Notes under the pieces: generated by a model
What the model was told of the DNA's origin: nothing
What the model saw: only the letters and a program-made list of their open reading frames with translations
The model's database searches: none
Part shown: positions 13,406 through 25,497 of the stretch, one piece after another
Position numbering within the stretch: the stretch's first letter is position 1
How the letters are laid out: every line of letters begins with the position of its first letter
Assembly: GCA_028534125.1 (NCBI GenBank)
Contig: CM052816.1
Span: 79,300,001-79,364,000 of the forward strand
DNA length: 64,000 nucleotides
Origin: Lama glama
Taxonomy: Eukaryota
Reading direction: 5' to 3'
Program-made: the position numbers and the translations under genes

Positions 13406-13512
13406 TTCAGGTTGAGTGAGGTGCATCCAACTACTAGGAAAGTTGTTTGTTCCAAGGCTGAGGGTTGTCAAATCCAGCAGAATGTCGGCAAATGCTTTAT
13501 GTCCTATTATGC
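13406..13512 (-). CDS. SPEF2: SPEF2 coding exon: (G)IIGHKAFADILLDLTTLSLGTNNFPSSWMHLTQPE
   Basis: Hand translation; acceptor attgtag|, donor GAA|gtaagc; 107 bp, phase 1 to 0; continues the frame from 25268. Confidence 0.94.
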
Positions 13513-15412
13513 CTACAATACAATGAAAAATATCTTTTCAGTTTTTATTACATGGCAGGGATTTGTTTCTTTTGCTAAAGTAGAATGAGTAATGGATATT
13601 CATGTAATTACTTTTTCCATATAATTTAAAACTGTAACCCTTAGAGAAACAGAAGACAGTCTGAACACCTAAAAATAACAATCAGTTTCCTGATGCTCTC
13701 TCATTATTGTTTCTCAGTTTATTACTTGGCTGAATAATAAATCATTCCAGATTGCACAGAATACTGAGACTTTATATTTTAGTTTGGAGTCTTTGAACTT
13801 TTACTCAGAATAGGTTGAATTAAAAAAAAAAAAGACTCCAAGGGTTTCTATTATACAGGAGGGCACAAGAGTAAAACGTTTTGGTAAATATGGGATAAAG
13901 GTGTTTCAAATGCATGCAAATCACCACTGTGATCAAGGTAACACATTTATCCTCATTTTACTTTTTTAAGTCAGAATATATTTGTTTTTATAACTGTAGG
14001 GAGACTACTGGATTGGAAGTGCTAATTTAATCATCTAATTGGCTCAAATATTCTGACATATTTTATAAAAGATCACTAACTTCTTTTTTAAAAATCACTA
14101 ACCTTTTAAACACTTTGCTCTTGAACACTAATCTACTTTGAGTCTGTTTAGGCTGTTGCTTACTTGAAGTTGCATGCACATGCATTAAAAACAGAAGTAA
14201 GGAAGCAAAATAAATGCATCTACTTAAAAAATGCCTAACTCCTATAGCAGAGGTACCTTCTAGAGCCAGGAGACACTCTTACATGTACTGGGGTATCTTT
14301 CCAGTCCAGAGTATAGAGCTTTTCTTCTTTGTTTAGGTATAAAAAGAGTAAAAAATAGATGTAATCTTGTATTTGTGTTTTTAGCATTTCTAAAGTCCAG
14401 CATGAACTTTATAATTTCCTCTAACCTTTGGGAAAATACAGCAATCCTTTAAAAAATTTCAGTGGTTCAAACCAAATTTACAAGTTTGAGATACTTTTCT
14501 GGTAGCAAGAGCAGAATCTTCCTTTCTTTGATATAACTAGCCATCCAGTAGGTTGTTCAGAAATAAATTGTCTGTTTTGATCAAACCTGAGTATCCAATT
14601 TTACAGAGATGAGAACACTTTCCCAGGTAGTGGAATTTTTGTTAAAATGATCTTTATATGATACCACATTGGTTTTCAGATATGTTAGAAATAAATCATT
14701 CATGTTCCTCAAGATGAAACCATAAATAAACTCAATTGAAACTGAAAAGGCTCAAAGTATTTAAAAATTCTGGTAGTTAGGTAAAATATTTCCACTGTCT
14801 CTACTGGCTATGGCGCATGCAAAGTGTTGTAGGAAAATATTTTCAGTTTATATAGGAATGATTTATCTGGGGGCTTTAGTGTGAAATGTGACAACTATTT
14901 TAATCTTTGGCCTTGTTATTTAAATGAACGAGGCATGTCATGAAATGACTTTCACATAAAATGCAGTAACAGAAACAGATAAGCTTATAAATCTTGTTTA
15001 AGAATCAAAACAAAGCTCTCTTTCAATTTGGTTGTAAGTTAGTCACCTAATGCAATCATCATTTAGAATTATCCAGGAAAAATAGACCTAAATGAACTCA
15101 GATCCTAATCCTAGTCTAGTAACCCTCTGCAATATCTCTCAGAAGGATTACATCAAAATAACACCATTGCTTGGAAGTATACACTTCACCCAAAGAATGT
15201 GAAATCATGTGTGAATAGACACCTAGAATTAGAAAGTTAGAGGAAAACCCATCTTTGGATTTTTGCTCTGTAAGTCTGGAAGATGCCAAATGCTTTTCAT
15301 TTTCAATGTGAAGACTAGTGACTTTTAAGTTTCAGGCTTTTGAAAATAGGATTTGTTTTTGTTTTTGCTTTTGTTTTTGCTATGCTCAATGAAGAGGTCA
15401 ACATTTGTCACA

Positions 15413-15767
15413 TCACTGATCACTTTCATAATGGCTCTCTGAGTTTGATGAACAATCCGAATTAGGTCTTGAGTCAACAGTTGAAGATGATGTTCTTGTA
15501 TTCCATAAACGAATGGCTTTCCTGGGGTCAAAGTTATTAATGTCTGGAGAACTCAGCTGAATTATCAGGAGATCCGTCATACATTCAGCCTTGACCTTGG
15601 CATGCATTTGGGACTTGGTGTGCTTCAACTGACTAAAGCCGCGTTCTGCTTCCGCTGAACTTGCCGGGAGGCTCAGCACCAGGTCAACTAGTGTTAGGAT
15701 GTTCGGGTACTTGTGGAAGTAAACAGAATTCACCAAATCCCAGGTCAATTTGCGGACGTTGTGAAAT
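15413..15767 (-). CDS. hAT transposase-derived module, terminal exon 5: hAT C-terminal (dimerisation) domain YPNILTLVDLVLSLPASSAEAERGFSQLK plus Ser-rich tail and TGA stop
   Basis: ORF 15413..15748 extended to acceptor ttttccctcctag| (phase 2); P-x-S-S-A-x-x-E-R-x-F-S is the canonical hAT motif carrying the catalytic Glu. Confidence 0.92.
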
Positions 15768-15853
15768 CTAGGAGGGAAAATGAAAAAAAAATGTAAAAGA
15801 TTGAGACTCCCAAATAAGATATTTGTAAATATCAGCTATGTTACTCATCTCAC

Positions 15854-15977
15854 CTAGCGTAAATCTCTAATTTCAACATGCTCCATTCTGTGTCCACTTC
15901 GTCAATTTTCACCTTGGCAGCTTCCAGTACTGGTTCATAATGTGCAATCAGGATGGACACCTCTTTTTCTCCAAATT
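15854..15977 (-). CDS. hAT transposase-derived module, exon 4: (E)FGEKEVSILIAHYEPVLEAAKVKIDEVDTEWSMLKLEIYA(R)
   Basis: Not in the ORF track; hand translation; acceptor ttgattgcag|, donor TAG|gtgaga; 124 bp, phase 1 to 2; FG...EW..LK pattern typical of ZNF862-like hAT proteins. Confidence 0.87.
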
Positions 15978-16071
15978 CTGCAATCAATACACAAAAAAGT
16001 CACAGATCTGAAAGACACTTGTACAGACAATCAAAGAACAACAGATTCAGAGCCCGTGCAAGGTAGGTTAC

Positions 16072-16280
16072 CTTGATTGATCTTGGCGGGCCACAATTTA
16101 AAGCTTCCAATTGTGGTTGCCTTCACCACATCTTGGCTGGCATCTCTAAAACAGCCTTGCAGCCTCTTGATAAGATGTGTTAAAACCGTGTTTCTCACGT
16201 CAGAAATGTTTCCTTTTCCTCCAAGGCAGTTACCATGAAAGTGTGTGACTGAATCCACCCTCCGTTCTTTTGGCCCCAGT
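16072..16280 (-). CDS. hAT transposase-derived module, exon 3: (R)LGPKERRVDSVTHFHGNCLGG...SFKLWPAKINQ(E)
   Basis: Within ORF 16031..16306; acceptor ttttttccctccccag|, donor AAG|gtaacc; 209 bp, phase 2 to 1. Confidence 0.87.
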
Positions 16281-16399
16281 CTGGGGAGGGAAAAAAATCC
16301 CCCCAAATAGACAAATTAAATGAAAAAGCACCTAGCAAATGATTTCTCAAGTTGAACTGTCTAGTCTGACAGACCCTCAGATCATCGCTGATACCTTAC

Positions 16400-16617
16400 C
16401 TTGTTTGATATATTCTGAGCATGTCCAGTGTTGACTCTAAGGTGGCAAATACATCAGCAATTGAGGAATTTCTGTTTTGAGTGACCCAGGACAGAATGCT
16501 AAGAATATTAATGACATCCACCAAGAAGTGGACAAATTTAACAACATCTGCTTGGAGAAGGAAGTCTAGAAGTTCTTTGGCTTTCTGATGACTGGTATCA
16601 GTTCTGCTTTCGTCTGT
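16400..16617 (-). CDS. hAT transposase-derived module, exon 2: TDESRTDTSHQKAKELLDFLLQADVVKFVHFLVDVINILSILSWVTQ...MLRIYQT(R)
   Basis: Within ORF 16396..16626; acceptor tgttacag|, donor AAG|gtaagg; 218 bp, phase 0 to 2; resembles hAT helical insertion-domain sequence. Confidence 0.88.
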
Positions 16618-16743
16618 CTGTAACACAGGTGGGAGATAAAATAGTGGTTTATCTTTCTCAAAGTTATTATTTCAAGTTGCTCAGTAAAAGTATTCTCTTT
16701 ATTCTGAAAAACTAAAATAGCATGGTATTTCAAAATTCCTTAC

Positions 16744-17912
16744 CGAATGCAGTTGCTGGACAATTGCTGGATATCCCTTGAGAAAGTTCTGGAGGGCAGC
16801 CTGTAATCCCTGAAGCCACCTCCCACCTCCTACTGGAGAGGGCACCACAGGCTGAAGGTGAAGGCCTTTGAAACCGGCCATCAGAAAACTCTTGTGGAGA
16901 GGAGAATTACGATAGAAGTAATAAATGCTCTGGAGAAGGTCTCTGACGTGGTTGTACAGGGGAACACTCTGGAACACTGCCTTGTACGATAGCTCAAGGT
17001 GATGTGGAAAGCAGTAAACAGCCAGCACACATGGCTGGATTTCTTTTAAAAGCAGGGCCACCCCGCTGCTGTTTTCTGCCTCCGAGCCGGAGGCACCATC
17101 ACTTCCAAAACCAACCAGCTTCTTTGCCCAGTCTTGGTTCGACAGCCGAAGTTGAAGACTTCTCTCCAGAGTTTTCTCAATGGCATTTTTTATTGCCAGA
17201 GGATCCTTCTTTTCCACCATCTGCACCCCGACGATTTGGCAATGCACTTTCCCTGCGTGGGCAAACTGTACGTACACGCGTTCAGCTTCCTGGATGAAAC
17301 TGTCTGTGAGCCCATCACTGATGACAGAGAAGAACTTACTTTTTTCTAATTTCTCTCTTAGCGTTCTCCGTTCTACTTCGGCAATAAAATATGTAAATGT
17401 TCTCGCTGATTTGTTAGTTCTGAACATGAGGCCAATGTCAATGCCCTTCATGTCGTCCAGCGTGCACATCCAGATAAAATCTTTGAGGGGACGTCCGGTT
17501 TCGGCGATAGCATGGCAGGACCTGAACAGGTTCTCCACCCTCCCGAGGGTCACCTTGCTCATGGTCCTCACCATCAGCTCCGTGGTGGCTCTGCCCACTG
17601 GAGAACCGCTTGTCGCTTCCACTAGGGAAGCTCTGGCGTGAGCCTCGCTGAGATGATATGCATTGAGAAATTCGGTCCTGAAGTTGTCGGTGCCGTAAAA
17701 AAGACTCATTTGGTTTCCCCTTGACTTCATTCCATGCTTACGACACAGGCCACAGAACATAAGATTTAGAATCTCATCATATACAAGCCAAGGGTACTTT
17801 TTAAGCCAAATTTTTAAAAACTGGTTGTTCCTCTTTGGAAGGTAATGGTCAAGTTTCCGTGGCCTTTTCTGCTTTTCAGTGACTCGAATCACACCATCTG
17901 GAGGCTCCCTGT
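16744..17912 (-). CDS. hAT transposase-derived module, exon 1: NLS-like KQKRPRK, TTF-type zinc finger, first two catalytic Asp, CxxH, RW (ZNF862/ZMYM1-like type)
   Basis: ORF 16699..17892 extends open upstream to acceptor ttttaaag| at 17912 (alternative acag| at 17908); donor TCG|gtaagg; motifs FSVISDGLTD, GFGSDGAS, YCFPHHLEL, GRW. The 5' boundary is inferred. Confidence 0.88.
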
Positions 17913-19742
17913 CTTTAAAATAACTCCATGTTTTTATTTTAAGTAATCATCAATGCCTCCCTTCGGTTTTGCCTAATCCCTGCCCCTTCGCATTTACTCA
18001 TTTCTGGAAAAATTCTAGTGAGTTTTCACTACTTAGCAGGCATTCTGGCTAGTGCTCCAAGTGCTTTCTATCATTTAATCCTCCTAAACCAGTATCTCTA
18101 CTTTATAGTTCAGAAAAGGGACCAATTATTAGTATCACTAGCCATTTTATGGATTAAAAAAACCCTAAGGCACAGAGAGGTTAATTAGTTTGCCCGATGT
18201 CACAGTGGTCACATGTAGTGGGGCTGGGTTCACTAGCAGGCACTCTGACTCCAGAGCCCCCCAAGTTTACACACTTCACATTACAGGTTTCTCCTATGGG
18301 CAAAGAATGCTGTGGTCTTTTTCATTCTAGAATCTATCTCCACGCAGGAGAGGGACACTGCTTTTTGCAGGATTTGCTTGTGACACCTCTTCCCTCCCGC
18401 CTCAGTCCTGCCTTCTCTGGCGGTGACAGGGCCCACTTGCTCCAAAAGGGTGCCCTTCTCAGGTGGTTCTGGAAAGGAGCTGTGCCGCATGCTTCATCTG
18501 TTTCTTTTCCCCAAAGGTCTAATTTTTGACAATCATTTGATTATTTGCCAGAAAAAAGGGTATTTATTTATCTGGACAAAAGGACAAAATAATTAAAGTT
18601 CCACAAATTGTCCTAAAATACAGTTTCTCCCAGAACACAGATGGCTTAGACCAACCAACCATCCCTCTCTCTGCCTTCACCTTCTGCTCATTTGATGACA
18701 CTGCTATTTCATAGCGCAGTGAAACCTGGACTCTGTGCTTCTGTGACGTTATATTAAAAAATCCTTGTGTTGACACACACGGTGTTTCCCTGCCCTGTTT
18801 TAGGGCCCTAGGCTTTCAGTCCTCAACTGGACTTTGAGCTCTTCTGACAGAAACACACCTACCTCTTCTTTGCTCCAGAATGTGCAAGGTGAGGGCTGAG
18901 TACTAGGTAGACCTGTAAGAAAATCAATCTTTCCTAATTGCTTTTCTTAGTCTCGTATCTCTTAACATCTTTGAATTGAAAACTTTTGCCTTTAGTCAGT
19001 CTGCCTCTGCCTTTCTTATTCTATTTGCACTTAACTTCTAGCTTGCCTTTAACCAGTCTCTTTGCAGTTGTTGTTAAAACAAAGCCCTGGGTTGTTTGTT
19101 TGTTTGTTTGTTTGAAGGATTTTTCCAAATCCTAGATGTTTCTGTGTTCATTGAAAACAAACCTCCCTCCTACCTTTGTTTCTTACCTGCACGTGGGGTA
19201 ACTTCCATGTCTCCCACCCTCGGCCTTCAGGGCCTGCTCTACACACAGGAACCTTGGTGGACATGCATGAACGTGTGAAAAAAGCAGAAATCATGTTGCT
19301 AAAGGAAAAGTCTTTAACTTTCACTACTGATTTAGCTGATACTTATGTTTTCGGTTTCATGGACAGATTTTCCAGAAGGTGCTATCTCGAATTCGGAGCA
19401 TACACTTTCATTCGCCTAATAAATTCTTTGGCTTCACAGGAACATGTTTCCTCCTGAGCCTGTGCCCACCACAGTTTCACCGGGTCCAAAGGCTTCTCAA
19501 TTCATACTGCACGTCCGTGACCTGAATCTGGGCAAGCAGGAGCTCACTGGCCGAGGGACCTGCAGGGCACCTGGCGGCCTCACTTCTTTTTCCTCTCATA
19601 CCCCCCTGGTGAGATACTCCTGTTAATATCATTGATCCTTCTCTCTCACACCTCTCCCAGGAAACGTTGCTGTATTTCTTGATCTGTGTAGATGTCAGAC
19701 TACTTTAAAGACTTTTCAGATCAAAATAGGGGGCTTCCTTAC

Positions 19743-19910
19743 CTGCAAACATAGAGTATCATAGTTTTAGAATTTTCTCAGAGACACTAAGCTTAGGAAA
19801 CCCCCCAAACTTTCTAGTTACTTCTTTCAGGCAACAACCCAGGTGCCCTCCCCGCTGCCTCTCGGTTCGTGCGTGGAGGCTCTGTGCGGAGACGGGAGCG
19901 TCCGCTGCTC
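19743..19910 (-). promoter_or_regulatory. Candidate alternative first exon/promoter for the hAT module
   Basis: Strong donor CAG|gtaagg at 19743; ATGs at 19762 and 19752; 8 CpGs in ~19853-19905. No transcript evidence available. Confidence 0.3.
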
Positions 19911-20969
19911 TCAGACACAGCCTCATTCTCCCACTAATCCACTCTCCAAGTCCTTTGGCTCTAAATGACTTTGATAATCTCTCCTGCATGTCCTCTGAGG
20001 GCCACTTGAGACTTCACAACTCAGCCACCAGCTCTTTGTGGCCTAGCTTCCTGCCACTTGCCTTAGCTGGTCTGTTGCCTGTTCCCTAAATGTCATGCAA
20101 CCTCAAAATCTCGATGTCGATTCCATTTTCGCCTGTGCCTGGAAGACCCTGCCCTGCTTCTCTTCCTGGAAGCGTCTGTCCAGAAGCTTCCCACGGGTTA
20201 AACCCTTTGCTGACACACACGGGCGGCAATAACTACTTCCTCCTTTGAATTCCTGTAAAAACCATATCGCTGAATGATCTTGTTAAGCCACTGCAGCTGA
20301 GAGTTCTTGAACTTGTCTTAGGCCAGTCACTGAGTCTAAAGATCTCCAAAAGGGGCCGGAAGGAGGGGCCCTTGTCAGTTTTTAGAACAAAGCTAAGGGA
20401 CTCGAACAACTGAATGCTGCCTCTCTTTGGAGGAAAGGGTACAGAATTTGCGGGATGGTATGCTCTCCAAATAGCCTCCCAGAAGAAGCCAAAACTGCTA
20501 AGAACCAAATCTCTACAGGTGTTACACGGAGTACTGATGGGCTGACAAGGAAAAGGAGTTCTTGTGGTTTAAGTGGGGACATTGGAACATGGCTAAAGTG
20601 TTCCAGTTTCCACAGACTTCAAATTGCTCCCATTGGAGAAAGGCTGTGTCTTCCTGACGTGCTTGGCACTTGGTGTTTGGGAGGAGATGTACCCATCCAG
20701 AGCTTACATAAAATGAGTGTTTTGGTTTTGTGTTCTTAAGGTCGCCAGGGAGTCACGTTCCTCATGGTTCAATTCCACTAGCTGTTGCGATTTTTTTTTT
20801 TTTCTGGAATTGTTCTCGGGCAATGCTGCAGGTGCCTATTAGGGTGTGTGCACCTTCAGCAATGGAGCTAACATTTTGGATAATCATAAGCATCGTTAGT
20901 ATCAATATTGTAAAATGTTATATATTATATAATAATATAATGTTACTGTAATTATATAATCAAGTGATA

Positions 20970-21170
20970 ATGGCTTACATCACACTTAAATTGCACATGC
21001 TATGTGCCAGACACTTTTAAAGCACTTTACATGTATTAGTTAATTTAAGGCTCATAACAACCCCTTGAAATATCCCATTTTCCAGATGAGGAAAGTGAGA
21101 CTGAAAGGTGTTAAATAACTTGCTCAAGATCCTATTACAGTCATTGGACAAGAAGTGGATTTGGAAGGAG
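20970..21170 (-). mobile_element. MIR SINE
   Basis: tatgtgccagacact...cccattttccagatgaggaaagtgagactga...taaataacttgctcaagatc. Confidence 0.7.
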
Positions 21171-23254
21171 CTGTATGACTCTTCTTACCCATGGTTGGGT
21201 CTGCTTACTCATCCAGCAATGGAGAAGAAGTGAATTTACATGGAAATGCTGGCCTGAGGCCTGACACGCAAGGCCTGATGCCATGCCGATGTTGGCTATT
21301 GCCGTAATCCAGGAAATGTTCACTGAATCCCTCTGTGCTGGGAGTATGTGCATGGGAACGGTTCCTGGGACAGTCCATGCAGAACACATCTGGTAATTCA
21401 GGCTGTCTCCTACCTAAGCTGCTCCTAAATTCTAAGTATAGATCTTTGCTGGGTGGCAAGAAAAATGCTACCAAGACAAGCTATTTCCTTATGTTTTGTG
21501 TGATTATCACGTGTAAGATGAGTTTTTTTTTCCTAGCACATTTGTGACAATCAACAAATGATATTTTATGTCTAATGACTACCCTTACTAAAGGAGATTC
21601 AGAATTATCACAAGTGGCAGAATCTGCCCAGGAAAGGAGTGATAAACATAAGCATTCCAGTATATGATGCATTTTCAATTTTACATCGTTTTCAGTAAGG
21701 ACTATCTTAATGAAGACTTTTAATTTCCATGGAGGTTAACCAACACTCAGAAAAACTTCTTAAGCTTTAGTTTTTTCCATTAATATCATGATACCAGCTA
21801 CTCACAAGTATTTATTCAGTCATTTTTAAATGAAAGATTATCCATTTTCCTCAATAATTTCATTTATGTAGCATAATTAAAAGTCATAAAGTGTAACTTA
21901 ACAATATTAACACTCTTTGTGAATTTTCTAAAAAAATCTTACTATGGGCCTAGTAACATAATGACTATTATGTGCAAATATGGGTGCTTTTTTGTAGAAA
22001 AATTCACCTACTAATCAGATTTTAATATATTTTAGTGAGCTCGAAGCTTACATCCTAGATATCATAGGCTGCATTGGTAAATATGAAATAGTATAAGGAA
22101 ATGCTCATATGTCTTGGCTTAGAAATAATAGCAGTGTTCAAGTTCAAGCAGGAAGTTTTTAAGGATTACGCATTTAGAAATGTACCACTTTCAGCCAGTT
22201 GCTCTATGCTTTCAAACTGTTACCACCTCAACTAAGATCATGTTTTGAAATTATAGATTTCTAGGGTAAATACCATGGAAGGTATCTTAGAAGGAGTATG
22301 ATCAAAAAAAAAATTCATGCAAAAGATTTAAGGCAGTGAACAACAATTGCAAGAATGAGGAAGAAAGACTAAAGTCAGAGGATGCTTTTGGGGACCAGGT
22401 GAACTGGGAGAAGGGGTGAGTGGTAATTCCTGGACTTCCTCACAGAGGGACAAAGTCAGCATTCCCTGCCTGACTTCTAAGATGGCATCAGAGAACCTCT
22501 AATTCTGTGACTCTGGGATGCAGAAAATGGAATGATTATTCTGTTTCCCTTTATACATTAGCAAAATGACAACATTGAGTATCATTTCTATTGATAGACT
22601 ACCCGATACTTAAGAAGCACCATATGCAACGTATATTTTTTCAAACAGGGTAACTGAGCTAATAACAAAGGGTTCAGGCTCTTTGCTTATAGTCTGTAAC
22701 TCATTTTGATCCATCAAGATCCCCCAATTCCATGGGATTGGATAGCTTTGTAAATTCTGCATTAATTACAACTGTTATTCTTAAACCTGGGTTAACTCGC
22801 CAGCTGGGGTGGGTGGAGGTGGTTCCCCAGACAGAGGAGGCCTCTGCACCTGTTTTCCTGCAATTCATGCAGCTGGGGAAGGAAAAGCAGAGCAGTTCCT
22901 AACCTTCCCTCGAGCAACCACACTCATTCTTCATTCTACACGTTTTCTAGTGGCTGCTCCCCCAACTTTAAATAGCCTCTGTATCTTTGCCATTACATCA
23001 CTGTTGACTTCTTTCAGTTCCTCCCTCCAAGGTATTTTATCACAAAATTTTCCTGACCAACCTTGTTGCACACTGATTCTCCTTTGCTTTGCATACTTGA
23101 ACACTTTTATCAAGTTCCTATTCTGTTCCAGAAAGAACCTAAGTAGAAGTTTATATTTTCTTCTTCTTTGATTGCTTTTTCAAATTATATTCTAAGTCCC
23201 TAAGGCAAGTGGCTTTCCTTTTATACTTACCTTAAATTTTTTTCCCTTTTTATG

Positions 23255-23446
23255 CTGGTGGGAGAGGTAATTAGGTTTATTTATTTATTTATCTATGTGC
23301 AAAATTTCTTTAAATTTTTAAAAAATTTTGAAATAATTATAGATTCAGAGTAAGTTTAAAAAGAAGTACAATGGAGGTACTGAGGATTGAACCCAGGACC
23401 TCATGCATGCTAGGCATGCACTCTACCACTGAGCTATATCCTCCCC
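23255..23446 (-). mobile_element. tRNA-derived SINE (camelid Vic-1-like), interrupted by ~75 bp of AT-rich sequence
   Basis: Minus strand GGGGAGGATATAGCTCAGTGGTAGAG...GGTCCTGGGTTCAATCCTCAGTACCTCC (A and B boxes) and tail AAATAAATAAACCTAATTACCTC. Confidence 0.8.
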
Positions 23447-25267
23447 TTATATTTACTTTAAAAAAAGTATATAACTATCTCCCTCCTCCTCTCCCTCCCT
23501 TTCTTCTCCCTTCCTTCTTATTCCCAGCGTACATTGAAAACCGTTGTGTCATACCATACTCTGAAAATAGACAAATGTACCAGATGACATTTTTAGCCCC
23601 AACAGTTTTGAGAGTTAATCTTCTAAGAAACACACATGTCAAGTTATAGCTGATACTTATAACTTGTTTTTAACTTTTAGTTGAAATGCAAAGTCTGATT
23701 ACGTGATTGGAGCCAAGAATGTATTACAGTTAACATGAATAGTAAGGTCCCTTCTGAAAGGGATATGAGTGGTTGATAAGTTTTCACCTATTCAAAGGCC
23801 CCCAAACACTTTTAATTTTGACCTGCTTCTAGTCACCCTAGTTTAGGATTAAAGCAAATCACATTTCATACTTGAATTTTTATACCTCTTTCTATTTTAT
23901 ATGTAAAAATTAGTGTGGACAAAATGAAGAGTAAAATCAGCTTTGAAGAAGGAAATATGCAATAAAAAGACACTGTGAAGCCCTCACAATGGGGAAGAGG
24001 GTGGAATCTGCCTGACTAAAGGACTGAAGGGATTTCCTTTGGTGGCTCTGTAAAATTGAGATTTTTCTGCACCTGTTGATGGCCATTTTGGGGGTACCTG
24101 CTGCTTCCTGCCCAAATGCTGCTAACCTGAGTTGGTGTCCATCCACTGCTGTAGTGTGTGCCTTTATATCTTGGAGGTGTAGCTCCACTCAAGCTGATTA
24201 GATGAGCTGATACACACCAGGGGAGGGGTCTATCCAGGGACACACAGTTACACCTGTTTCACCCACTGGGCTTAGCAAGGAGTCTTCAGACTTAGCAAAG
24301 TAACTCTCTTTTAACTAATGAGATCTAATGTGCTTTTCTGGAAACACTGAATTTTTAAAAAATAAGTGAAATACAACCATTGTGAAAGTAGAACTGTGCT
24401 AGTACTAGACAAATGTTAGTTGATTATTCTCTAGAGGAAAGTAATGATTTTCCAGTAAGTAGGAGTTGTTGGAAGATAAACCTCTTTATGAGAGGCAATT
24501 TAGTTCAGTGGGAAGGGAGGGGCAGCCCTTTGAACCCGGAGAGTCCTGAATGATACAGGACCATAGGCAGATTCTCAATTGCCCTGTGACTCAGTATCCT
24601 GACTTACAGAATAGAGATACAATCCTACATGATTTGTCTGAATTATTTGTGCTATCAATGGATGGAATTCATTGATGAAAATCTACATGCAGAAAGATTC
24701 TGAAATTTAAAAAAGCCTGGTGCTACAGCACCATGATAATAAAATATGAAGGAAATAAAGAATCTGTGTGCAGAAAATAACTATACTCTTACATGTGAAC
24801 AGATTAATTAATCCATTAAGCAAGTATGGGTTAACAAAGGTTCTGCTCGTGGTCTCCAAAACATTGAGGAAAAAGGCAAATACAAAAGGGAAATTCTCTA
24901 CTCCCTGGTCTCCCTTCACAGACTAGTGGGGGAGACAGAAACACACACTCATAATCCTAGTACAAAACTTAAACTAGAAGTATGCACGAAGGCTGTCTTT
25001 CAATTGCCAGATGGAGTAATACTCAAATTTATCAACCTGCCGGCCAGGGGCAGGGGAGGGCAGGAATGAGGATCACTGCACTCCCAAAGGGTTAGACACT
25101 TTTCTTCTCTGTTTAGTTCAGATCCATTTTGTGGAAAGCAAGGGCTTGTTTTAATGCCACACAGTGCCAGAGGGCTGTTTTACTTATGGATAGGTGATCG
25201 CCATCCTGGTCAATCTTAACCTTCCCCCCTCCGCCCCTACTCTTTTCATAATAATTACTTTCCCTAC

Positions 25268-25497
25268 CTTTAGGTGCTATATCTAAGAACTGATTGCGAA
25301 GGCTGTCAAGTTGTTCAATGGTCAGGGTGCCATTTTCCTCTTTTTCTACAGGTGCAGGGCGCACGGGAGGAGGCGGATCTGGAAAGACTTTTAAATCGCC
25401 CTTAATGAAGAAGTCTTCTTGGCCTAAATAAAGTTCACTCTGAATTTTGGTAGATGTTTCAATGTGATAGCGAGCCACCTCCGTCAATTTTTCCACG
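25268..25497 (-). CDS. SPEF2: SPEF2 coding exon: (S)VEKLTEVARYHIETSTKIQSELYL...PDPPPPVRPAPVEKEENGTLTIEQLDSLRNQFLDIAPK(G); last exon before the transposase-containing intron
   Basis: Within ORF 25113..25496; acceptor tttcag|, donor AAG|gtaggg; 230 bp, phase 2 to 1. Confidence 0.95.

Follow-up and report, generated by a model that had tools for sequence, protein, structure and literature searches.

The CSB–PGBD3 (ERCC6–PGBD3) fusion of primates attaches one piggyBac transposase exon to a chromatin-remodelling host protein, with the parental protein still being made, and GTF2IRD2, a constitutive fusion of eutherian age in a transcription-factor family, combines GTF2I repeats with a Charlie8 hAT transposase. 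Here we describe a locus that we read as belonging to the known class of host–transposase fusions: a five-exon coding module derived from a hAT transposase, which lies inside an intron of SPEF2 in the llama, Lama glama, on a stretch of 64,000 nucleotides (nt) of contig CM052816.1 (positions 79,300,001–79,364,000 of the forward strand; hereafter the window, in whose own numbering positions are given). As in CSB–PGBD3, an intronic transposase on the host strand would be captured through an acceptor just 5′ of its frame, with alternative splicing keeping the parental protein; unlike CSB–PGBD3, the SPEF2 module is of the hAT type, is divided into five exons, is of amniote age, has an axonemal host and possesses a cassette route back to the host C terminus. 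With GTF2IRD2 it shares a hAT-derived C-terminal module placed on a host N-terminal part in mammals, but its host is a structural ciliary gene, and the fusion would be one of the alternative isoforms of that gene. The zf-C17orf113 finger and the hAT C-terminal dimerisation region are found likewise in ZNF862, C17orf113 and KIAA1586, whereas the SPEF2 module differs from these genes in being split by introns and in lacking both a start codon and any KRAB or C2H2 array.

CSB–PGBD3 is named as a precedent by Cosby et al. (10.1101/2020.05.07.082677), and according to the main text of that preprint old host–transposase fusions are generally without a parental transcript, and KRAB and other chromatin domains dominate their hosts. 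The features that this text gives for the class, with SETMAR and KRABINER as examples (alternative splicing, an acceptor bordering the frame on its 5′ side, separate exons and a conserved transposase; 10.1101/2020.05.07.082677), are also those of the predicted SPEF2 fusion. SPEF2 is absent from the main text of the preprint (10.1101/2020.05.07.082677), the Table S3 of which may list it. A full-text literature search, judged from its listings, found no paper describing the SPEF2–module fusion, and module-bearing SPEF2 isoforms are already in the automatic annotation of dozens of species. Set beside the class as that main text presents it, the locus departs in its host, a ciliary central-apparatus protein, in its multi-exon module and cassette exit, and in that, more than about 300 million years (My) on, the annotation still contains parental SPEF2 as well as module forms.

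The host gene is SPEF2/CPC1, known as a disease gene in primary ciliary dyskinesia and in defects of the sperm flagellum. The reference mouse (NP_001291971, Q8C9J3) and human (NP_079143) proteins are collinear with the window exon by exon from 57877 to 4728 on the minus strand, and the CH_2, SPEF2_D5, ADK and SPEF2_C domains are present (scored on mouse and human models, SPEF2_C on the human X5 model). Exon 25497–25268, which has 77–89% identity in tblastn searches with reference mouse and human SPEF2 and fusion models, is the final exon common to canonical and module-bearing forms. From it, reference mouse and human SPEF2 pass to exon 13512–13406 with the join APK^GIIGNKAF (^ marks the exon boundary). 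The 11.7-kb intron between these two exons contains the transposase-derived module, whose exons (17912–15413) lie on the minus strand like those of SPEF2. We think it likely that the module is spliced to SPEF2 in the way that this arrangement predicts.

The predicted junction combines a phase-1 donor with a phase-1 acceptor and thereby keeps host and transposase in frame. The donor at 25268 (AAA G^GTAGGG), a good one, carries over one base, and the exon start at 17912 requires exactly one upstream base, giving LDIAPK-D(G^AC)-REPPDGVIRVTEKQKRPRK with Asp as the split codon. The AG at 17914–17913 is the first in-phase acceptor 3′ of an in-frame TGA (17949–17947); the only other AG between that TGA and the junction (17925–24) is out of phase. 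When the SPEF2 exon and module exons T1–T5 were spliced by coordinates with a script, a single frame of 768 codons was obtained, the sole stop of which is terminal. In the window sequence no ATG occurs between the TGA and Met52 of the module (LNLMFCGLC), and Met52 falls within the Pfam zinc-finger match. A phase match by itself would arise by chance one time in three; what exceeds chance here is supplied by the comparison with other species given below.

A preliminary description of this DNA had already proposed a SPEF2–transposase fusion isoform. Its donor at 25268, its upstream TGA without any ATG before the finger, its in-phase AG on the same strand and its warning that this acceptor is weak were all found as described. 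The attachment of about 690 residues agrees with the 691 codons counted here, but these are distributed over five exons and do not form one open reading frame (ORF): the 415-codon open frame of that description (17946–16699) is the first module exon region, and its span of 17908–25268 covers only the intron and junction, the module extending to 15413. The fusion interpretation stands in so far as the junction is the one used in 34 eutherian SPEF2 models, with the qualification that the terminal swap it envisaged is one of two annotated outcomes.

Table 1. Positions of the SPEF2 exons, module exons, splice sites and other features; unless a locus is named, coordinates are those of the window.
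Feature	Position	Strand	Evidence or remarks
SPEF2 coding exon, contains SVEKLTEVARYH, ends LDIAPK + 1 base of next codon	25268..25497	-	acceptor ctttcag^CGTGGA, donor AAG^gtaggg
Phase-1 donor GT, serving canonical and module-bearing splice alike	25266..25267	-	GAT ATA GCA CCT AAA G^GTAGGG
In-frame TGA, upstream limit of module frame	17947..17949	-	sequence
Weak AAG acceptor, phase 1, of exon T1 (predicted fusion junction)	17913..17914	-	shared position in 34 eutherian models
Exon T1: basic stretch, zf-C17orf113 finger, most of RNase-H-like core (D200, D272, W366)	16744..17912	-	PF25431, Hermes alignment, donor TCG^gtaagg
Zinc finger, Pfam match: C54 + C57 (17754-17743), Y86 (17658-17656), H87, H92	17620..17796	-	PF25431, sequence
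Primate internal T1 entry	window-equivalent ~16839		proteins P0040, P0068-P0071, P0048; finger and most of core absent in the four human models and the ring-tailed lemur model
Exon T2	16400..16617	-	ttacag^ACAGAC ... AAG^gtaagg; aligned to orthologous models
Exon T3	16072..16280	-	ccccag^ACTGGG ... AAG^gtaacc; 79-91% identity to eutherian models
Exon T4	15854..15977	-	ttgcag^AATTTG ... TAG^gtgaga
Exon T5: hAT C-terminal dimerisation region, E615 (15646-15644); coding 15767-15416, stop TGA 15415-15413	15413..15767	-	PF05699
Internal phase-1 donor in T5, GAA T^GTATGA, exon end 15583	15581..15583	-	exit point in 12/16 orthologous read-on models
Candidate polyadenylation-like hexamer ATTAAA, first past module stop, 508 nt downstream	14899..14904	-	sequence
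Next canonical SPEF2 exon, G-IIGHKAFADILLDL, start of SPEF2_C domain	13406..13512	-	acceptor AG 13514-13513, tattgtag^GC
Paralogue locus in own genome, contig C7	L002:1345-3456	+
Paralogue locus in own genome, contig C36	L003:523-2676	-

All five module exons are flanked by GT/AG and the eight internal splice sites are canonical (Table 1). A reading of the module as a single long ORF was rejected, as in-frame stops occur at 16699 and beyond and are located in the introns. Near the N terminus, a basic run, EKQKRPRK (window 17880–17865, module residues ~12–20), is kept among eutherian models and is different in sauropsids; it resembles a classical nuclear localisation signal.

The junction recurs in gene models of other species. 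Two protein searches (40 and 82 matches) yielded 96 proteins, and a third, for shorter forms, gave 35 matches. Of the 96 proteins, 86 contain an orthologue of exon 25497–25268, and all 86 pass directly from it into module sequence, a result that holds partly by construction, the proteins having been found through the module. The site of entry is that of the window in 34 eutherian models (APK^G/D/A-R/K-D), whereas 7 marsupial (APK^AKTPWKYFK) and 30 sauropsid models (APK^AIRALKQFK) enter ~9 codons upstream; the remaining 15 models enter at other sites. Conservation of the AG is thus seen at the same position among eutherians and not beyond them. The window frame 5′ of its AG (IKTWSYFK^DRE) resembles the upstream-entry peptide, and no AG is present there; from an alignment by eye, the acceptor may have shifted downstream in the eutherian stem with its phase retained. 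Module-bearing models are found among both NCBI and UniRef/Ensembl-type entries. In mouse, one cluster includes XP_017172157 and the TrEMBL entry A0A140LIV1 (2076 amino acids (aa)); A0A140LIV1 is the full terminal fusion, with the CH_2, SPEF2_D5 and ADK domains together with the zinc finger and hAT region.

Some models depart from these joins. In grey squirrel (P0096) the SPEF2 exon is joined straight to T4 (window 15977; APK^EFGEKEV) and T1–T3 are skipped, either as an alternative form or through an artefact of prediction. An acceptor within T1 itself (APK^GDRKWLHGLQ) is the point of entry in the ring-tailed lemur X2 model and in four human ones (X3, X5 and two X7); the human models retain the last part of T1, T2–T4 and T5 up to its internal donor, and are without the zinc finger. 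A gorilla model has two of the four tracked finger positions changed (Cys to Phe and His to Gln), and a mouse lemur model retains the full T1. Compared as sequences, these models suggest partial decay of the 5′ part of the module in some primates.

Several observations weigh against splicing of the module to SPEF2 in the predicted way. The junction acceptor is poor, an AAG with 8/18 pyrimidines at −20 to −3 where five other measured acceptors have 12–17/18, the range also of the T2–T5 tracts; this weakness is consistent with a minor alternative form and equally with non-use. Gene models are not independent, because prediction pipelines choose in-frame AGs and transfer models by homology, so that the 86 models amount to far fewer than 86 observations. 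For the llama, we infer the 25268-to-17912 junction with the support of other species' models. A search for sequencing runs found 24; seven runs, from two studies, are recorded as RNA and contain 0.09–0.43 of the sampled words of 15413–17912, words that could derive from unspliced SPEF2 pre-mRNA. In one orthologous frame assembled from sequencing runs, that of chicken, the reading begins at an internal Met, without upstream continuation into SPEF2, a start that fits transcripts initiated in the intron and also limits of the contig or of ORF calling. In nineteen source-named models the module is treated as a gene of its own, under ZNF862-like, KIAA1586-like or LOC names; these come from canids (683 aa), kangaroo rat, tree shrew, rat (LOC120100737), platypus, seven squamates, turtle and birds. 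Last, the finger has Tyr at residue 86 in the window (TAT, 17658–17656), a position occupied by His in all 35 other eutherian models.

The spliced exons themselves are present in frames from run assemblies of chicken (T1–T5, 578 aa, 100%, in one block), mouse (T3–T5, 222 aa) and dog (T2–T5), and none of the frames listed for these three species crosses the SPEF2–T1 junction. A second account holds that the module is a separate nested gene, with its own intronic promoter and translated independently, and that the SPEF2–module isoforms in databases are merging artefacts of predictors that attach a start-less frame, in phase and on the host strand, to SPEF2. The existence of the 19 stand-alone models counts in its favour, as do the internal Met of the chicken frame, the weak fusion acceptor and an in-frame ATG that lies just upstream in some species (MWSYFKGRD in seal and bat, TWSYFKDRE in the window). 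However, the starts of the stand-alone models are scattered and unconserved: 10/19 use a Met within the finger and would thereby lose ~51 residues conserved among eutherians, and the rest use species-specific ATGs that are absent from the window. The missing ATG 5′ of the finger in the window, the conservation among eutherians of the residues between acceptor and finger, and the scatter of the stand-alone starts point to dependence of the module on SPEF2. A nested gene would also leave the phase match with the SPEF2 donor to be accounted for, since it holds in eutherian, marsupial and sauropsid models despite their differing entry points, and a second phase-1 donor in T5, which creates a symmetric 1905-nt cassette, would be purposeless in a stand-alone gene. 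We therefore regard a nested gene as distinctly unlikely and favour splicing of the module to the SPEF2 exon.

Two exits from T5 are represented among the models. In most of the fetched models, the mouse TrEMBL entry among them, the protein ends at the stop of T5, so that the module would replace SPEF2_C. Another 16 continue past T5 into the canonical C-terminal exons of SPEF2, among them horse, mink, bear, mouse lemur, tamandua, marmot, hedgehog and four human isoforms, and 12/16 leave T5 after AKIKAE at a donor equivalent to window 15583. From the start of T1 to 15583 there are 1905 nt (635 codons, in frame), and the corresponding join in the window reads AKVKAE-C-IIGHKAF. The donor at 15583 is in phase 1 like that at 25268, so T1 and the shortened T5 delimit a symmetric cassette that could be inserted just before SPEF2_C. 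The four human models with internal T1 entry use this exit, and the ring-tailed lemur model ends at the module stop. Models P0009, P0062, P0042 and P0090 leave T5 elsewhere (window 15479 and ~15422) before rejoining the canonical exon; these exits are probably ab initio artefacts, the site at 15479 reading ACT^GTTGAC, a poor phase-0 donor.

These exits raise the question of whether the module is mainly or only an internal cassette, a 635-residue globular insert before SPEF2_C, with the terminal swap as a minor form or an artefact. The exact length of the cassette and the phase 1 at both its ends would be explained in this way, and so would the models that reach the canonical C-terminal exons; moreover, the module stop is not followed by a strong AATAAA, and the earliest hexamer past it is the ATTAAA at 508 nt. 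On the other side, the majority of the fetched models terminate at the module stop, the internal donor truncates the Pfam hAT dimerisation match, and conservation of the T5 tail past that donor (MTDLLIIQLSSPDINNFDPRKAI.LW) extends from mammals to birds, which is expected only if this tail is translated. We think it unlikely that the module acts mainly as a cassette, and prefer the reading in which the terminal swap and the cassette are both products of a module spliced to SPEF2.

Orthologues of the module, always located in SPEF2, were found by the protein searches in many eutherian orders, marsupials, platypus, turtles, alligator, birds and squamates, and no amphibian or fish protein was among the matches. 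The next relatives after the orthologues are invertebrate or unnamed sequences with 28–35% identity. The window module is 82–84% identical to those of bat, cattle, horse and pig and 58–61% identical to those of turtle, alligator, swan and duck. In 14/16 species pairs, module identity equals or exceeds that of the upstream part of SPEF2 (58.5% versus 57.3% for bat and swan, 78.6% versus 70.8% for turtle and swan), and the module frame is open in the window and in 110 orthologous models. Mammals and sauropsids diverged more than about 300 My ago, and a frame of ~2 kb that remains open and alignable across this split points to purifying selection; by this protein-level proxy, the transposase part appears to have been under such selection for more than 50 My. 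The module is very likely to be real as a conserved coding segment. The possibility that it represents a decayed transposon fossil was rejected on the grounds that the five exons are open and that 58–61% identity is kept between mammals and birds, turtles or alligator.

The module is a complete hAT transposase body. T1 matches zf-C17orf113 (PF25431) at 33.9 bits against a cut-off of 29.5, and T5 matches the hAT dimerisation region (PF05699) at 27.8 bits against a cut-off of 21.4 (expectation value (E) 2.1e-6). A profile of the family aligns with the Hermes transposase at the first catalytic Asp, the Trp and the Glu. The fold was modelled on the dog orthologue, which is 84% identical to the window module as read from the T1–T5 identities. 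The AlphaFold model has a mean predicted local distance difference test score (pLDDT) of 80.2 and a predicted template-modelling score (pTM) of 0.73, and its only strong matches in the PDB are Hermes chains (E 3e-11 to 7e-9, ~520–616 aligned columns; best match with a template-modelling score of 0.66, normalised to the target, over ~546 columns). The model thus predicts an RNase-H-like core with an inserted helical domain, as in Hermes. Compared with Hermes (PDB 2bw3, 4d1q, 6dww, 8edg, 8sjd), the module has the overall fold and the D, W and E motifs, the triad and W being present in the window; it differs in its ~14% identity, its N-terminal finger, its single copy without convincing terminal inverted repeats (TIRs) and the replacement of the triad in 35/93 models.

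The catalytic triad of the window (D200, D272 and E615) and W366 are all present. The three triad positions can all be aligned in 93 orthologous models, of which 58 have the triad intact and 35 have at least one residue replaced: Glu is changed to Gly in ruminants and fruit bat and to Ala in squamates, the second Asp is changed to Asn in five marsupials, and other changes are varied. The Trp is kept in 109/110 orthologous models and the finger Cys residues are kept in 105/105 and 104/105. Replacement of the triad while the Trp and finger Cys are retained indicates selection on the fold and the finger and not on catalysis. The conserved activity is, from these residues, most likely not transposition, and DNA binding by the module is plausible.

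The Tyr at residue 86 (NAYHLSEAH in the window, NAHHLSEAH in other eutherians) may reflect either a change specific to the lineage or a mistake in the assembly. The neighbouring His87 might serve as the zinc ligand instead; His87 as the conserved ligand column itself was rejected, because the conserved column is residue 86. Decay of the module to a non-functional, exonised relic in this species would account for the Tyr, and in the same direction the window has the highest number of singleton changes at columns that are invariant in the other eutherians (8; pig has 7 and mouse 6) and the primate models show that lineages are able to lose T1. Such a relic is nevertheless very improbable: five open exons, eight canonical internal splice sites and intact D200, D272, W366 and E615 are retained, His87 could act as a ligand, and the singleton count lies within the range of species without close relatives in the set. 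A functional module joined to SPEF2 remains our preferred reading.

The target of selection and the splicing pattern described above allow us to propose a history for the module. A hAT transposon of the zf-C17orf113 ('ZNF862-like') group would have entered the SPEF2 intron before the mammal–sauropsid split and then lost its mobility and its own start codon, with its five coding exons kept and translated only within SPEF2 transcripts. SPEF2 pre-mRNA would be spliced from the donor at 25268 either to the strong canonical acceptor at 13514–13513 or, less often, to the weak acceptor at 17914–17913 and then through T1–T5. If translation ended at the stop at 15415–15413, the SPEF2 part before SPEF2_C would be retained and SPEF2_C replaced by 691 residues, with a tail made up of the zinc finger, the RNase-H-like core and the hAT dimerisation region. 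If the transcript instead left T5 at 15583 and rejoined SPEF2 at 13512, 635 residues would be inserted right before SPEF2_C. We infer both the relative abundance of these forms and their molecular role.

For that role we favour, from the domain content, nucleic-acid binding by the finger, self-association through the hAT fold, or both, which would be added to the microtubule-binding CH/D5/ADK part of SPEF2. In a bolder version, which we regard as highly doubtful, amniote SPEF2 has been a dual-purpose protein for more than 300 My: its CH/D5/ADK half would be tied to a sequence-specific, self-associating hAT DNA-binding module acting, in spermatids, in the nucleus or where the nucleus meets the manchette, and also in multiciliated cells. 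The module would connect chromatin with the axoneme-building machinery and perhaps still cleave DNA where D-D-E and W are intact. No comparable function is known to have been described for any domesticated transposase or any central-apparatus protein.

The literature on SPEF2 treats the protein as purely axonemal. If the module forms are made, 691 conserved codons of the locus, evolving about as slowly as SPEF2, have been overlooked. The fusion would then be among the oldest host–transposase fusions that still coexist with a parental isoform, its host domain would not be one of the chromatin and transcription domains that prevail among such fusions, and an unusual symmetric cassette would let the same transposase exons either replace or precede SPEF2_C. 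The module is present and annotated in mouse, the finger-less human models offer a natural comparison, and the module is relevant to the reading of deep-intronic variants.

Finally, the module was compared with the rest of the llama genome and with metagenomes. By protein and by DNA, the window is the sole 100% match in its own genome, indicating a single copy; the other three protein matches are on other contigs and 23–34% identical. This distance and the separate contigs led us to reject the module as an orthologue of ZNF862, C17orf113 or KIAA1586. No convincing TIRs were found around the module, the single pair bracketing it (18 nt, 78%) being at chance level. A single copy without credible inverted repeats indicates a transposase-derived host segment and not a transposon. 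Two of the protein matches are intact single-exon paralogues (703 and 717 aa; Table 1) that have zf-C17orf113 and hAT dimerisation domains, are 23–25% identical to T1 and presumably correspond to llama genes of the ZNF862, C17orf113 or KIAA1586 type. A metagenome scan with the family alignment returned 28 loci, at best 46% identical, which are distant transposon relatives with no orthologue among them. Three of the metagenome contigs (L005–L007) contain relatives 37–46% identical to the dog module across 260–500 residues, possibly living representatives of the transposon family from which the module came.

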